A DNA stretch of 64,000 bases from Candidatus Tepidifontimicrobium thermophilum (GCA_031459915.1 JAVKHO010000015.1:11099-75098); one strand, 5' to 3'. Counted from the first letter of the stretch, positions 36,158 to 45,565 are shown. The notes: generated from the letters alone by a model not told the origin. Made by a program: numbers and translations.

Positions 36158-36487
36158 TCAGGCCCCGGTGTCGCCCTCCGCGGCGGAGTCCAGGATCAAC
36201 TCGTAACGCTCCAGTTTCGAGGGCCCGCGGAAGGCCTCGCGGGGGAGGGTGCCGGACCGCGCGTGCCCCCGCTGGAACGCCTCCGAGCGGGTCCACGCCT
36301 CGAAAGCCTCCCGGGTCTGCCACACCGTGACGACCACGTAAGGATCCTCCGGGTCCACGGGGCGTAACACCCAGTTCCGGACGAAGCCCGGCATGCGGTC
36401 CACTTCCCGGGCCCGCGAGCGGAAGCGTTCCTCGAACGCTTCCTGGAACTCCGGGCTCACCGGGATCCGGTTCATCACCACGAACAC
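36158..36487 (-). CDS. antibiotic biosynthesis monooxygenase domain protein (IsdG/HmoA-like)
   Basis: VVMNRI, FEERF, MPGF, W.T.EAFEAW..S.AF..GH; GAGGAGG RBS. Confidence 0.85.
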   Translation of the reverse strand: MFVVMNRIPVSPEFQEAFEERFRSRAREVDRMPGFVRNWVLRPVDPEDPYVVVTVWQTREAFEAWTRSEAFQRGHARSGTLPREAFRGPSKLERYELILDSAAEGDTGA

Positions 36488-36498
36488 GCCGCACCTCC

Positions 36499-38247
36499 TC
36501 AGTACCGCCGCTCTTTGGGTTGGAAACGTGTGATCACCACGGGCTTGTCCTCCAGCCGGACCTCGCGGGGTGCAGGCCGCCACGCCAGGGTGTGGCGCAG
36601 CCAGCGGGCGTCGTCGCGCTCGGGGTAGTCCTCCCGGAAGTGGGTCCCGCGGCTCTCGGTGCGGTGCAGGGCGCTGGCCGCGGTGGCCTCCGCCACGTCC
36701 AGCAGGCAGCCCGTCTCGAAGGCCTCCACCAGCTCCTGGTTGTACACGTACCCCCGGTCCTCGAGGCCCACCCGGCGGTATCGCTCCTGCAGCTCCCACA
36801 GGCCCTGCAGGGCCTGCTGCAGGCCGGCCCGGTTGCGGAAGACCGAACAGTGGCGCTCCATGAGATCCTGCAGCTCCAGCCGCAGCCGCGCCCAGGACTC
36901 CGGACCGCGCGCTCCCACTAGCCGCAGGAAGTGCTCCGCGGGGCCGTCCAGGGGCGAGGGGGGCGCAGCGGGCATGGCCCGGGAACGGGCCAGCTTCGCC
37001 ATGTCCTGCGCCGCGCGACGGCCGAACACCAGGATGTCCACCAGGGAGTTGGTCCCCAACCGGTTCGCCCCGTGCACGGACACGCAAGCGCACTCCCCGG
37101 CCGCGTACAGCCCTTCCACCGCCTTCCGCCGGCCGTCCCACAGCACCCGCCCCCAGGTGTCCGTGGGGATCCCGCCCACCGCGTAGTGGGCCGTGGGCCG
37201 GACCGGGACCAGGTCCCGGGCGGGGTCCACGCCCAGGTACGTGCGGATCAGAGCGGTGACCTCCGGCAGTTTGGTGCGCCGCACGTCCTCGGGTAGGTGG
37301 CGGAAGTCCAGAAACACGCAGTCCCCCTGCTTCCCGCCTCCCCGGCCCGCCTGGATCTCCCGGAAGATGGACCGGCTCACCACGTCGCGGGGCGCCAGCT
37401 CCATGAGGTGGGGGGCGTACCGCTCCATGAACCGCTCGCCCAGCCCGTTCACCAGGTAGGCGCCTTCACCCCGGGAGGCCTCGGACAACAGAATCCCGCG
37501 GCCGTAGATTCCCGTGGGGTGGAACTGGTAGAACTCCATGTCCTCCAGGGGCACCCCGCGGCGCCAGACCAGCGCCGGGCCGTCCCCGGTCAACGTCACC
37601 GCGTTGGTGGTAGTCCGGTAGATCTGCCCCCACCCGCCTGTGGCGAGCAGCACGGCCTTTGCCCGTACCCCGTGCAGGCCCCCGCGCCGTACGTCCCAGG
37701 CCAGAAGCCCCGAGCACGCCCCCTCGTCCACCCACACGTCCACCACCAGGAACTCGTCGAAAAACCGCACGCCCCGCCGCAGGCACTGCTGGTACAGGGT
37801 GTGCAGGATCATCTGCCCCGTGCGGTCCGCGGCGTACACGGACCGTGCCAGAGGCCGCTCGCCGAAGTTGCGGGTGTGCCCGCCTGCCCGGACGCGTTGC
37901 TCGATGCGGCCGTCCGGACCTCGGTCGAAGGGAAAGCCCATGTGCTCCAGCTCGAACACCACCTGGATGGCCTCGGAGCACAGGATCTCCACCGCGTCCT
38001 GGTCCGCGAGGTAGTCCCCGCCCTTCACAGTGTCGAAGGCGTGCCACTCGGGATGGTCCTCCTCCGCGTGCCCCAGGGCTGCGCCCATGCCGCCCTGTGC
38101 GGCGCCCGTGTGGGATCGCAAGGGGTGCACCTTGCTGAACACCGCCACGCGAAGGTCCGGGTGGCGTGAGAGCTCCAGGGCCGCGTACAGCCCCGCCCCA
38201 CCCCCGCCCACCACCACCGCGTCAAACTCGTGCCAGACCACCTCCAT
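36499..38247 (-). CDS. succinate dehydrogenase/fumarate reductase flavoprotein paralogue (no sdhBCD nearby)
   Basis: GGGGAG, RSHTGAAQGG (covalent-FAD His), QFHPTG, ELAPRD, HY..GG, HGANRLG, ESRG.H motifs. Confidence 0.9.
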   Translation of the reverse strand: MEVVWHEFDAVVVGGGGAGLYAALELSRHPDLRVAVFSKVHPLRSHTGAAQGGMGAALGHAEEDHPEWHAFDTVKGGDYLADQDAVEILCSEAIQVVFELEHMGFPFDRGPDGRIEQRVRAGGHTRNFGERPLARSVYAADRTGQMILHTLYQQCLRRGVRFFDEFLVVDVWVDEGACSGLLAWDVRRGGLHGVRAKAVLLATGGWGQIYRTTTNAVTLTGDGPALVWRRGVPLEDMEFYQFHPTGIYGRGILLSEASRGEGAYLVNGLGERFMERYAPHLMELAPRDVVSRSIFREIQAGRGGGKQGDCVFLDFRHLPEDVRRTKLPEVTALIRTYLGVDPARDLVPVRPTAHYAVGGIPTDTWGRVLWDGRRKAVEGLYAAGECACVSVHGANRLGTNSLVDILVFGRRAAQDMAKLARSRAMPAAPPSPLDGPAEHFLRLVGARGPESWARLRLELQDLMERHCSVFRNRAGLQQALQGLWELQERYRRVGLEDRGYVYNQELVEAFETGCLLDVAEATAASALHRTESRGTHFREDYPERDDARWLRHTLAWRPAPREVRLEDKPVVITRFQPKERRY

Positions 38248-43409: not shown

Positions 43410-44450
43410 GTGCCCCGGTACCCGGCGGGAGAGCTGCGCGGCTGGGTGGCTCGCTTGTTCGAAGCCGCAGGCCTCGACGCCGAAGACGCGCGGCTGATCT
43501 CCGACGTCCTCGTCAGCGCGGACCGGGCCGGGGTGCACTCCCACGGCGTCGTCCGGGTGGGCGCGTACGCGGAGCTCGTACGCAGCGGTATCTGGCGATC
43601 CGGGGTGCGGCCCCGGCTGGTCCGGGAAGGTGCCGCCTTCCTCCTGCTGGACGCGGAGGGCTGCCCGGGTCCGGTGGCCGCGGTGGACGGGATGACCAGG
43701 TGCGTGGAGAAGGCACGCCGCAGCGGCCTCGCGGGCGTGTGGGTGCGCAGCGGAGGCCACTTCGGACGGGCGGGCTACTACGCGGAGATCGCGGCCCGAG
43801 AAGGTCTGGTGGGTGTGGCCATGGCCAACGCCGCGCCCAGCCTGGCCCCGTGGGGCGGACGGGAGCGGACCCTCGGCAACAACCCCGTGGCGGTGGCCGT
43901 CCCGCGCAGGGACGGGCCCCCCATCGTCCTGGACATGGCCCTCTCGGTGGCGGCCCAAGGCCGTGTCCGCCTGGCCGCGGAGCGCCGCGAGCGGCTGCCT
44001 GCCGGATGGGCCCTGGACCCGCACGGCCACCCCACGGACGACCCGCAACAGGCCCTGGCCGGTACGCTCCTCCCCGTGGGGGGCTACAAGGGGTACGGGA
44101 TGGCCCTGGTGGTGGACGTGCTCACAGGCGTGCTGTGCGGGGGCAGCTTCGGCCGGGACGTCTCGCCCCTTCGGGGGAGCCGGTACGGCGCCAGCCACGC
44201 CTTTTTCGCGGTGGACGTACGGCACCTCCGGGGACCTTCTGAATTCTTCACGGACGTGGAGCGGCTGGTGCACATGGTGAAGGGCACGGCCCTGGCTCCA
44301 GGCTACACGGAGGTCCTGTTGCCGGGCGAGCGGGAGGCGCGCTGTACCGCCGAGCAGACGGACGCGGTGGAGCTGCCGGAGGAGGTCGTAGCACAGGTCC
44401 GGCGGGTCGCGGCCCTTCTGGGCCTTCCGGGGCCGCGGGAGGAGGGATGA
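43410..44450 (+). CDS. Ldh2 family oxidoreductase (type 2 malate/L-lactate/sulfolactate dehydrogenase-like)
   Basis: AD..GV.SHG, HFGRAGYY, GNNP, LDMA, GGYKGYG, LPGE motifs. Confidence 0.9.
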   Translation: MPRYPAGELRGWVARLFEAAGLDAEDARLISDVLVSADRAGVHSHGVVRVGAYAELVRSGIWRSGVRPRLVREGAAFLLLDAEGCPGPVAAVDGMTRCVEKARRSGLAGVWVRSGGHFGRAGYYAEIAAREGLVGVAMANAAPSLAPWGGRERTLGNNPVAVAVPRRDGPPIVLDMALSVAAQGRVRLAAERRERLPAGWALDPHGHPTDDPQQALAGTLLPVGGYKGYGMALVVDVLTGVLCGGSFGRDVSPLRGSRYGASHAFFAVDVRHLRGPSEFFTDVERLVHMVKGTALAPGYTEVLLPGEREARCTAEQTDAVELPEEVVAQVRRVAALLGLPGPREEG

Positions 44451-45565
44451 GCTCCAGCGGGCCACGTCAGGCTGCCTACCGGCTCGGTGTCCTGAAGGGC
44501 GACGGCATCGGGCCCGAGGTGGTCCCCGTGGCGGTGGACCTAGCGGACCTGTCCGCGCGCGCGGCAGGCCTCTCCGTGGAATGGGTGGAGCTGCCCGTGG
44601 GGCTGGAGGCGTACGGGCAGCTGGGCGACACCCTCCCCCAGCAGACCGTGGAGGCCCTCCACGGCTGCCACGGGTGGGTACTGGGGCCTGTCGAGCACCA
44701 CCGTTACGACCCCCGGCTTTCAGGCATGCGCAACCCCAGCGGGACGCTGCGGAGGCTCTTTGACCTTTACGCCAACGAGCGGCCAGCCCGCAACCTCCCG
44801 GCGGTCCCCAGCCGGTACGAGGCTGTGGACCTGGTGGTGGTGCGGGAGAACACCGAGGGCTTCTACGCCGACCGCAACGTGCTGGAGGGCGATGCCGAGG
44901 TCCTGGTGACCCCTGACGTGGTGATCAGCCTCCGCGTGGTCACCCGGCGCGCGTGTGAGCGGATCGCAGAGTACGCTTTCCAGCTAGCCCGCCGCCGCGC
45001 ACGCCTCCGCGCCCGCCCCGGCCGGGTGACCGCGGTCCACAAGGCCAACGTCCTGCGGCGGGGCGACGGGCTGTTCCTGGCTTGCTGCCGGGCCGTGGCG
45101 TCCCGGTACCCCGACGTGGCCCTCGACGATGTGCATGCAGACGCGGCCGCGTACTTCCTCGTGCGGGACCCGCAGCGGTACGACGTGCTGGTCACCACCA
45201 ACCTGTTCGGCGACATCCTGAGCGACCAGGCGGCGGGGCTGGTGGGAAGTCTTGGCGTGGCACCCTCCCTGAACTCCGGCGACGAGCACGCCATGGCCCA
45301 GGCGGTCCACGGATCGGCCCCCGACATCGCGGGGAGCGGGGTCGCCAACCCTACTGCGGAGATCCTGTCCGTGGCGATGCTGTTCGAGTGGCTCGGCCGG
45401 CGGTTCGACGACCCCGCGGCCACCGAGGCCGCCCGCCGCTTGGAGGAAGCCGTGGGCGCGGCGCTTTCCGCAGGTGTCCGGACCCCCGACCTGGGTGGGT
45501 CCGCCACCACCGCGGAGTTCGCCCGCGCGGTGCGGGCGCGCCTGGCCCCTGGTAGCATGCTTTGA
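44447..45565 (+). CDS. isocitrate/isopropylmalate dehydrogenase family protein
   Basis: GDGIGPEV, RENTEG.Y, HKANV, NLFGDILSD, QAVHGSAPDIAG motifs. Confidence 0.92.
   Translation: MSSSGPRQAAYRLGVLKGDGIGPEVVPVAVDLADLSARAAGLSVEWVELPVGLEAYGQLGDTLPQQTVEALHGCHGWVLGPVEHHRYDPRLSGMRNPSGTLRRLFDLYANERPARNLPAVPSRYEAVDLVVVRENTEGFYADRNVLEGDAEVLVTPDVVISLRVVTRRACERIAEYAFQLARRRARLRARPGRVTAVHKANVLRRGDGLFLACCRAVASRYPDVALDDVHADAAAYFLVRDPQRYDVLVTTNLFGDILSDQAAGLVGSLGVAPSLNSGDEHAMAQAVHGSAPDIAGSGVANPTAEILSVAMLFEWLGRRFDDPAATEAARRLEEAVGAALSAGVRTPDLGGSATTAEFARAVRARLAPGSML

Follow-up and report, generated by a model that had tools for sequence, protein, structure and literature searches.

A succinate dehydrogenase-type flavoprotein paralogue in a putative operon for aconitate- or tricarballylate-like acids of Candidatus Tepidifontimicrobium thermophilum

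What substrate would be served by a flavoprotein of the succinate dehydrogenase (SDH) type whose gene follows those of an isomerase and a tricarboxylate importer is the question raised by a locus of Candidatus Tepidifontimicrobium thermophilum. The stretch analysed, hereafter the window, comprises 64,000 nucleotides (nt) (GCA_031459915.1 JAVKHO010000015.1:11099-75098) and lies on contig C7 of a genome of 2.6 Mb, in 33 contigs and 96% complete; its G+C content is 72%, and the nearest public relatives of its proteins are metagenome-assembled genomes (MAGs) labelled Armatimonadota. Genes were called by Pfam and NCBIfam scans, and their starts were refined by reading the DNA; other genomes, loci and contigs are denoted by G, L and C numbers. 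The cluster extends from position 36158, the stop of a gene for an ABM-family protein, to 45565, the stop of a gene for a dehydrogenase resembling isopropylmalate dehydrogenase (IPMDH). The scans bear out an earlier note on this DNA in that there are two divergent arms with eight named genes, prpF-tctC-tctAB-sdhA2-ABM on the minus strand and gntR-ldh2-IPMDH-like on the plus strand, in the order and within the limits that it gave. The reading that we favour, for which we see about an even chance, is that the locus is a regulated accessory operon for the uptake and activation of an acid of the aconitate/tricarballylate type, that is, a succinate with a carboxyalkyl or alkyl substituent. The interesting part of the locus is the flavoprotein, SdhA2, and its clade, rather than the cluster as a whole.

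SdhA2 (583 amino acids (aa), positions 36499-38250, minus strand, start ATG 38250) matches FAD_binding_2 with 357.5 bits and Succ_DH_flav_C with 151.9 bits, and it reaches 775.3 bits on the SdhA equivalog model TIGR01816 (cut-off 727.35). The locus scan found no sdhB, sdhC or sdhD gene adjoining it. On contig C12 of the source genome SdhB (262.3 bits) is encoded immediately after a canonical SdhA (865.7 bits), which rules out SdhA2 as the housekeeping SdhA; the two flavoproteins are 62% identical. SdhA2 is thus confirmed as a true SdhA paralogue. Of the 94 genomes of the phylum set, 12, from five genera, encode proteins that share 70% identity or more with it, and the next tier of identity in those 94 genomes, at 64% or less, is canonical SdhA; fragments 66-67% identical in G013 could be assigned to neither type. 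The motif QR[VI]RAGGHT is present in all 11 distinct clade members recovered from loci, the corresponding QR-RFGGHT in 20 canonical SdhA sequences (one of them, L050, from the unpublished genome G025), and ten alignment columns split the two groups absolutely, for example N-to-H in ALGN, H-to-Q in DRTGH and M-to-V in HYAMGG. Among the 120 best cluster representatives from a collection of 5.8 billion proteins, 34 carry the R-A-G-G motif (33 at 68-98% identity and one truncated protein) and the other 86 have Phe. A FastTree phylogeny was built from 51 rows, with 17 of the 33 motif-bearing and 29 of the 87 other representatives, the window protein, the canonical SdhA of the genome, three SdhA2 proteins from loci and one outgroup. 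In this tree the 29 canonical rows, the SdhA of the genome included, group together with 100% support, and all 21 motif-bearing rows fall outside their clade. SdhA2 belongs to a clade of its own within the SdhA family. In the databases the SdhA2-type genes all bear the name 'succinate dehydrogenase flavoprotein subunit'.

The residue that defines the motif lies in a telling position of the alignment with E. coli SdhA and NadB, both taken from the annotated K-12 record. Ala122 of SdhA2 aligns with Phe119 of E. coli SdhA and with Glu121 of NadB, and one extra residue is inserted just ahead of it relative to canonical SdhA. The histidine that binds flavin adenine dinucleotide (FAD) covalently is kept (His47, equivalent to His45 of E. 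coli SdhA; NadB has Ser there), and the catalytic columns HPT, R288, H355 and R397, with Arg and His-Tyr columns among them, are invariant in the SdhA2 alignment. The available part of a study on NadB places Glu121 in the active site, where it hydrogen-bonds to the amino group of L-aspartate, and describes a neutral residue at this position in the other SDH/fumarate reductase (FRD) enzymes (PMC10249383). Since the catalytic residues are kept and the equivalent of Glu121 is changed, the clade appears to retain SDH chemistry with an altered site for the C2 substituent: the residue facing the substituent on succinate C2 would have changed from a bulky Phe to Ala. Such a change would enlarge the pocket and admit a substituted succinate.

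The genomic contexts of the clade point to the same partner more than once. Outside this genus SdhA2 is found in seven further contexts, the metagenome part of this synteny covering eight loci at least 70% identical to SdhA2 out of 80 returned. SdhA2 and PrpF share one gene string in three of the eight context types, and do so in three different gene orders: PrpF-TctC-TctAB-SdhA2 in this genus, PrpF immediately upstream of SdhA2 in G035 (L042), and a TctC-like gene upstream of SdhA2 with PrpF 29 nt downstream in L094 (= L095). The TctC-like binding protein of L094 (681-1955) carries an N-terminal domain of the carboxymuconolactone decarboxylase (CMD/AhpD-like) type, an unusual fusion. PrpF genes are rare, with no more than three matches in any of the 94 genomes; an orthologue of at least 58% identity is present in all 12 genomes that carry SdhA2 and one of at least 56% in 14 of the other 82, counts that come from related, not independent, genomes and have no statistical test attached.

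In the proposed pathway the acid would be imported by a tripartite tricarboxylate transporter (TTT) composed of TctC and a TctA-TctB fusion. The periplasmic solute-binding protein of the TctC/Bug family (358 aa, 40305-41381, minus strand) has a Pfam TctC score of 36.8 bits (cut-off 27), and its homologues, 49-98% identical, are labelled TctC/Bug in Armatimonadota MAG records. The membrane protein (650 aa, 38282-40234, minus strand) matches Pfam TctA with 378.7 bits over residues 18-435, and its C-terminus (residues 509-644) matches TctB at a marginal 27.1 bits (cut-off 29.1). The system has, then, the TctC and TctA of a TTT transporter together with a TctB part that falls just below the cut-off and is fused to TctA. 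SdhA2 would dehydrogenate the succinyl part of the imported acid to a fumarate-like trans alkene, tricarballylate giving trans-aconitate. SDH takes the hydrogens in anti fashion and yields a trans alkene; tricarballylate is 2-(carboxymethyl)succinate, and its product, 2-(carboxymethyl)fumarate, is trans-aconitate. The substrate of aconitase, cis-aconitate, is the maleate-like (Z) isomer. Hence, with trans-aconitate expected from SDH chemistry and the cis isomer needed by aconitase, an aconitate isomerase would be required. The PrpF-family enzyme (387 aa, 41401-42564, minus strand, Pfam PrpF 417 bits) could fill this place by turning the trans alkene into the cis form usable by an aconitase-type hydratase; its TSK Lys and GxCGN Cys motifs align with those of solved relatives. 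Two enzymes of the family, TarA and TbrA, isomerise aconitate, as the available part of the report on them describes (PMC11495376).

The electrons would most likely exit via the housekeeping SdhB-SdhCD. This route is proposed since the electrons of a covalent-FAD SdhA need a high-potential outlet, and locus L096 (SdhA2-SdhC-SdhD-SdhB) encodes SdhC, SdhD and SdhB together with a clade member. A complex predicted between SdhA2 and the SdhB of the source genome scored 0.94, the best of three controls 0.00; of 157 solved complexes 116 attained that mark, as did 2 of 215 mismatched pairs. Agreement between the runs extended to 97% of contacts or more, and the predicted local distance difference test (pLDDT) value of the partner was at least 91. 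Complex II structures have been solved, and SdhA2 is 62% identical to a canonical SdhA; the result hence attests likeness to those structures and is not proof of binding. At the predicted SdhB interface SdhA2 and the canonical SdhA of the genome are identical at 38 of 56 positions (68%) versus 63% overall, and within the clade 30 of the 56 interface positions are invariant versus 277 of 583 overall, a difference too small to argue from.

Downstream, an isocitrate-like 2-hydroxy acid would be oxidatively decarboxylated by an enzyme resembling NAD-dependent isocitrate dehydrogenase (IDH), the step of the Ldh2 enzyme being undefined. The candidate is the IPMDH/IDH-family beta-decarboxylating dehydrogenase of the plus arm (372 aa, 44447-45565, Pfam Iso_dh 290.8 bits), one of five Iso_dh members of the source genome; the others are LeuB (494 bits), an NADP-IDH by the sdh operon (612 bits), a tartrate-dehydrogenase type (517 bits) and a distant fifth. 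It stays below every NCBIfam equivalog cut-off (best LEU3_arch, 327.5 versus 409.8), and its best PDB matches are the homoisocitrate dehydrogenase (HICDH) of T. thermophilus (3asj, 266.8 bits) and, after it, NAD-dependent isocitrate dehydrogenases. A Gly of the window enzyme aligns with Arg85 of HICDH, a residue to which we take a role in that enzyme to belong. The segment R95-N96-P97-S98 aligns with R112-S113-L114-N115 of E. coli Icd, in which Ser113 and Asn115 are presumably the residues that bind the gamma-carboxylate of isocitrate; LeuB, DmlA and the LeuB and tartrate-dehydrogenase-type paralogues of the genome have G-x-L-L at this loop. The sequence APDIAG instead of APKYAG we take to mark the use of NAD. 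The polar IDH-like loop therefore favours, as far as alignment can suggest, a carboxylate-bearing, isocitrate-like substrate. Distant homologues, 49-61% identical, lie in unrelated contexts (G009, G018 and G069-G071, near amidase, PhoD, Rieske, RpiB and other genes); those of G009:C38 and G069:C14 (L080, L084) are each interrupted by a single in-frame stop (one TGA, one TAG) and may be pseudogenes or reflect sequencing errors. The Ldh2-family 2-hydroxyacid/2-oxoacid dehydrogenase (346 aa, 43410-44450, plus strand, Pfam Ldh_2 352.2 bits) has its best NCBIfam scores below the cut-offs, 222.5 of 500 for sulfolactate dehydrogenase and 215.7 of 356 for ureidoglycolate dehydrogenase.

The two arms meet in a divergent control region (42633-42683, both strands), delimited by an alignment of seven orthologous intergenic regions and by a promoter scan. 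On the minus strand a -35 box TTGACA (42661-42656) is separated by 17 nt from an extended -10 box TGGTATGCG (42641-42633); the plus strand has a -35 box TTGTCA (42655-42660), a spacer of 17 nt and a -10 box TACAAT (42678-42683). The plus-strand promoter was the sole promoter-like site that the scan found in 10.6 kb, where 0.2 are expected. A palindrome, TTGTATGCAA at 42682-42673 and TTGTATACAA in four of the seven aligned loci (consensus TTGTAT(G/A)CAA), overlaps the gntR -10 box. It is invariant across the alignment, as are the gntR start codon, TTGACAA and TGGTATGCGT, and the conserved blocks can be read as back-to-back promoters. The palindrome, which we take to resemble FadR-type operators, is a candidate operator for the GntR-family regulator of the FadR/FCD subclass (238 aa, 42691-43407, plus strand; Pfam GntR 64.6 bits, FCD 96.4 bits; start ATG 42691), for which no NCBIfam equivalog reaches its cut-off. 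This FCD-GntR protein would repress both arms from the palindrome between the two promoters. The 7 nt between the end of the gntR -10 box and the ATG are too few for a ribosome-binding site, and the mRNA of gntR may thus lack a leader. On the other side prpF starts at TTG 42564, preceded by the ribosome-binding site GGAGGTG; the ATG at 42642, which is part of the conserved -10 box, is not the start.

Within the arms the spacing looks operon-like. The ldh2 gene starts at GTG 43410, 2 nt past the gntR stop, with GGAG as ribosome-binding site, and the ATG 44447 of the IPMDH-like gene overlaps the ldh2 stop by 4 nt; 31 nt separate tctAB from sdhA2, and about 23 nt the sdhA2 stop from the ABM start (ATG 36475, alternatively GTG 36487). 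A hairpin with a T-run between tctC and tctAB (40256-40270, minus strand) could attenuate read-through; the terminator scan as such was uninformative, with 3 sites versus 3.0 expected by chance. The link between the arms rests on the shared promoter region, on conservation at the genus level and on joint deletion in one genome. In close relatives, with PrpF identities of 84% or more, the complete eight-gene cluster is present in the genome loci L007, L010 and L011, parts consistent with it are found on the shorter contigs L008, L009 and L020, and among metagenome loci L091 and L093 carry it (ABM being cut by the contig end in L093) and L092 has the part from TctC to ABM. The deletion concerns G087, of the same genus and 96% complete, in which blastn of the locus against the window shows the DNA jumping from position 44789 to 35883. 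The missing block, 35884-44788, took in one 8.9-kb piece the ABM, SdhA2, TctAB, TctC, PrpF, GntR and Ldh2 genes and approximately the first 114 codons of the IPMDH-like gene, and no match to the SdhA2 type, PrpF or Ldh2 was found in that genome. The cluster is therefore dispensable, and the truncated IPMDH-like gene shows a deletion in G087 instead of an insertion in the other genomes. It is one event, however, and its end points prove little about the functional unit. Beyond the genus the view of the eight genes as a co-occurring unit, put forward in the earlier note, is not supported: the full set is confined to one genus in which the flanks are syntenic as well, the Ldh2 orthologue occurs in 6 of the 94 genomes, all of this genus (none outside it at E <= 1e-80), and the distant contexts of the IPMDH-like enzyme are the unrelated ones given above.

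In relatives of the minus arm a different dehydrogenase is encoded. Where PrpF is about 68% identical, only PrpF-TctC-TctAB is kept (L012, L013, L015, L017, L018). In five of the seven such loci scanned with Pfam (L012, L014, L015, L016, L017) a FAD_binding_2 protein of about 490 aa is encoded directly upstream of PrpF, preceded in L012, L014 and L017 by a protein of the phosphoenolpyruvate mutase/isocitrate lyase family. The FAD_binding_2 proteins of the two loci scanned with NCBIfam are TcuA, with 519 and 513 bits (cut-off 369), and the lyase upstream is PrpB-like, at 286-299 bits below the cut-off of 354. G045 has the same five-gene string, PrpB-like lyase-TcuA-PrpF-TctC-TctAB, and, going by coordinates, 8 of the 94 genomes have TcuA directly next to PrpF (G012, G014, where it is partial, G016, G018, G026, G045 and the unpublished G017 and G025). 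In the source genome TcuA (NF006130) was not found, the best score being 28.7 bits versus the cut-off of 369, nor was it present in the seven other genus members or in G035. It is in this genus, with an operon devoid of TcuA, that the orphan SdhA2 follows the transporter. It is worth noting, by analogy, that the relatives' operon has a PrpB-like lyase and this one an IDH-like dehydrogenase, and that 3-substituted malates are consumed by enzymes of both kinds. A MAG of 60% G+C (L014:7571-17639) has PrpB-like-TcuA-PrpF-TctC-TctA with, immediately after it, SdhB of the B. subtilis type (346 bits) and SdhA (838.7 bits, cut-off 855), a further case of complex II genes beside an operon of the tcuA-prpF type.

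These observations suggest a wider proposal, which we hold tentatively and place on the doubtful side. The SdhA2 clade would be a complex-II-type flavoprotein for a substituted succinate, for example converting tricarballylate to trans-aconitate, with the PrpF isomerase as obligate follow-up; it would act as a plug-in head that borrows SdhB-SdhCD and feeds the quinone pool, and in this genus it would have displaced TcuA from an ancestral tcuA-prpF-TTT operon.

The locus shares parts of its design with several known systems. TcuRABC of Salmonella enterica, with homologues in Acinetobacter baylyi, likewise joins an importer to a dehydrogenase of the FAD_binding_2 superfamily that converts a saturated tricarboxylate to aconitate under a dedicated regulator. 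TcuA, absent from the source genome, is present before the orthologous PrpF-TTT module in sister genera. The locus differs in that its dehydrogenase is a complex-II-type SdhA, its transporter is a TTT, its regulator is GntR-FCD and not LysR-type as TcuR is, and the cluster contains no Pfam family of the TcuB-like or TcuC type (TcuB was searched for in the cluster, not genome-wide). Salmonella TcuA reportedly yields cis-aconitate, according to a title cited in PMC2606687. SDH chemistry, unlike TcuA, predicts the trans isomer, and therefore the PrpF enzyme would have a job here. In TarRAB of Bacillus velezensis FZB42 a PrpF-superfamily aconitate isomerase is encoded beside an importer, with a divergent regulator, by the available part of its description a proven design; the locus has a PrpF-family gene, for a candidate aconitate isomerase, next to an importer. 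In the Tar system, however, the importer TarB belongs to the major facilitator superfamily and TarR is a LysR activator, in place of the TTT and GntR-FCD of the locus (PMC11495376). The Tar system, as that part presents it, has no dehydrogenase, Ldh2 or IDH-like gene, and the locus has all three. In the 2-methylcitrate cycle with AcnD and PrpF, the latter flips a trans-type (methyl)aconitate from the preceding enzyme for use by aconitase, as would be the case here; the enzyme ahead of PrpF in the locus is a flavoprotein dehydrogenase and not a dehydratase. That cycle itself was rejected: no aconitase, AcnD, PrpB or PrpC gene was detected by Pfam and NCBIfam between 32.5 and 46.1 kb, PrpB (394 bits) being on another contig, and the window protein misses the PrpF equivalog TIGR02334 (370 bits, cut-off 440.55), all of which agrees with the earlier statement that this is not the methylcitrate cycle. 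With the SdhA of complex II, SdhA2 shares the full-length architecture, the covalent-FAD His, the catalytic His and Arg residues and a score above the equivalog cut-off; it differs in Ala for Phe, in the one-residue insertion, in having no adjoining sdhBCD and in its transporter/isomerase operon. By its gene content the locus thus looks like a hybrid of TcuRABC and TarRAB and a member of neither. Its description as undescribed stands to the extent that it matches neither system; it is nevertheless a variant of these described designs, as far as the available parts of the sources tell (PMC2606687, PMC11495376). Searches of titles and abstract openings, with most subscription journals outside their coverage, returned no report of an SdhA-type enzyme in such an operon or of an orphan SdhA clade.

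Several points weigh against the favoured reading. If the product were plain cis-aconitate, housekeeping aconitase and NADP-IDH would suffice, and the IDH-like and Ldh2 enzymes would be unexplained; tricarballylate/aconitate is our first-choice substrate, and the presence of dedicated IDH-like, PrpB-like and Ldh2 enzymes would be easier to account for with C7 analogues (methyl- or homo-). The cluster revealed neither a TcuB-like gene nor any other gene for a dedicated electron acceptor. Four of the eight context types (G012/G014; G009 and L100; G018; L099) show the SdhA2-type gene by itself in an unrelated neighbourhood, and in L096 it lies in what seems a normal sdh operon; the clade may therefore have kept succinate as a substrate. 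The catalytic residues of SdhA2 are all those of succinate dehydrogenase, and the effect of Phe-to-Ala on specificity is a prediction. G012, G014 and G018 carry both TcuA and the SdhA2 type, from which it follows that SdhA2 is not merely a substitute for TcuA, and the TcuA call itself comes from one NCBIfam model, NF006130, TIGR02485 giving 267 bits (cut-off 372.55). Among solved structures the isomerase comes closest to 3-methylitaconate isomerase (3g7k, 364 bits), ahead of PrpF (2pvz, 317 bits). Finally, co-occurrence of the two arms is confined to one genus, in which synteny extends to the flanks, from GlnA to the M48 peptidase; the synteny of the cluster therefore tells little about its function. 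Of the earlier proposal, the logic of import, dehydrogenation, isomerisation and oxidation or decarboxylation and the tricarballylate/aconitate candidate have gained from the TcuA-PrpF-TTT order in sister genera, the SdhA2-PrpF adjacency and the IDH-like loop, while the substrate itself is deduced from these and stays a candidate.

One alternative takes the locus as a set of unrelated modules. PrpF and the TTT would perform a TarAB-like uptake of trans-aconitate, SdhA2 would be an alternative succinate-oxidising head of complex II placed downstream by chance, and the gntR-ldh2-IDH-like arm would be a separate operon. The isolated SdhA2 genes of four context types, the one case inside sdhCDB and the score above the SdhA equivalog cut-off fit this view, as do the confinement of the plus arm to the genus and the conservation at a distance of PrpF-TctC-TctAB alone. 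We nevertheless consider it unlikely, for chance placement accords poorly with three independent SdhA2-PrpF adjacencies, with a pocket substitution invariant across the clade and with a gap of just 31 nt after tctAB; moreover, TcuA is missing from precisely those genomes whose operon includes SdhA2, and the cluster was lost as one block in G087 by a deletion that cuts into the IDH-like gene.

A branched C5 dicarboxylate (methylsuccinate, mesaconate, citraconate or itaconate) as substrate is a rather improbable alternative. SdhA2 would convert methylsuccinate to mesaconate, the PrpF/Mii-like enzyme would move the double bond or invert its geometry, and after hydration the IPMDH-like enzyme would decarboxylate 3-methylmalate. 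The match of the isomerase to 3g7k speaks for such a pathway, the Phe-to-Ala change would also fit a methyl group, and the operons of relatives hold a PrpB/dimethylmalate-lyase-like enzyme. The flavoprotein of those relatives, on the other hand, scores as TcuA above cut-off, the polar loop of the IPMDH-like enzyme resembles that of IDH and departs from the G-x-L-L of LeuB and DmlA, and the cluster has no gene for a hydratase of the LeuCD or mesaconase type.

Very improbable, in our estimate, is a pathway running in reverse, with a fumarate-reductase-like flavoprotein reducing trans-aconitate or an analogue as an electron sink and PrpF making the trans isomer from cis-aconitate. SDH/FRD flavoproteins are known to be reversible, and anaerobes reduce trans-aconitate to tricarballylate; yet SdhA2 has 775 bits on the forward SdhA model versus 537-546 on the FrdA models and keeps the covalent-FAD histidine typical of succinate oxidisers, and an importer with a repressor suits catabolism better. 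The proposal that SdhA2 stands in for a missing L-aspartate oxidase is close to refuted: the changed residue does occupy the NadB Glu121 position, where NadB too departs from canonical SDH, and the source genome has no NadB-type gene and two strong SdhA-family matches only, but the residue is Ala and not Glu, the covalent-FAD His absent from NadB is present, TIGR00551 gives 398.5 bits (cut-off 452.75), and neither NadA nor aspartate dehydrogenase was found in the 96% complete source genome, hence no quinolinate pathway to serve. None of the 41 sampled genomes of the phylum has a NadB above cut-off, and the lineage may be one without the aspartate route to NAD.

The remaining gene of the cluster encodes the ABM protein (105 aa, 36158-36475, minus strand, Pfam ABM 76.1 bits), which the earlier note had listed in the minus arm. 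It appears to be of the IsdG/HmoB type, with no evident role in acid catabolism, and is seen beside SdhA2 in this genus only. Its best PDB match is 1iuj_A, TT1380 of T. thermophilus (151.7 bits), followed by HmoB, MhuD and IsdG/I; against HmuQ (NF053649) it has 69 bits (cut-off 130). Asn2, Trp52 and His70 look aligned by eye with what we take to be the Asn/Trp/His catalytic triad of the IsdG family. The cluster is flanked by genes for a thiolase and for an ADP-forming acyl-CoA synthetase split into an alpha and an ATP-grasp beta subunit (32533-35838, minus strand) and by MsrA (45580-46148, plus strand). Membership of the thiolase and the acyl-CoA synthetase in the operon was rejected, given the gap of about 320 nt past the ABM gene and the retention of the thiolase and both synthetase subunits, as of MsrA, in G087 despite the deletion. 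Farther off, a weak DndB-like match (54565-55692, minus strand, 28.3 bits, cut-off 29.1) lies beside an open reading frame of 1291 aa (55919-59794, minus strand).

The source genome has a second island for organic acids (C23:70000-89000, L176). It encodes a class-I fumarase, a TRAP transporter of the TAXI type, a PrpB-like lyase that shares 51% identity with that of the relatives' tcuA operon, a protein of the MmgE/PrpD family, an Iso_dh enzyme of the tartrate-dehydrogenase type, another GntR-FCD regulator, TctC-TctB-TctA and a short-chain dehydrogenase/reductase (SDR). A second PrpF paralogue (49% identical by tblastn) lies beside a thiolase-like protein at C30:1-14000 (L177), where SDR, enoyl-CoA hydratase and family III CoA-transferase genes follow after a gap, a CoA-dependent context unlike that of the window.

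To our knowledge, flavoproteins of complex II are treated as strict succinate/fumarate enzymes, and the known relatives with other substrates, NadB and the soluble reductases, are structurally simplified cousins. If the favoured reading is true, the locus would provide a full-length, covalent-FAD SdhA with a changed residue in its substituent pocket, its gene being linked to those of an aconitate-type isomerase and of an importer for tricarboxylates, and would suggest a second route into the tricarballylate/aconitate pool, coupled to the respiratory chain. It would offer a simple and testable specificity switch, Phe119 to Ala, and a case of non-orthologous displacement within one superfamily, TcuA by SdhA, in uncultured bacteria of the Armatimonadota type. 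The finding would also bear on annotation, in which the genes of this clade currently pass without distinction as flavoprotein subunits of succinate dehydrogenase.

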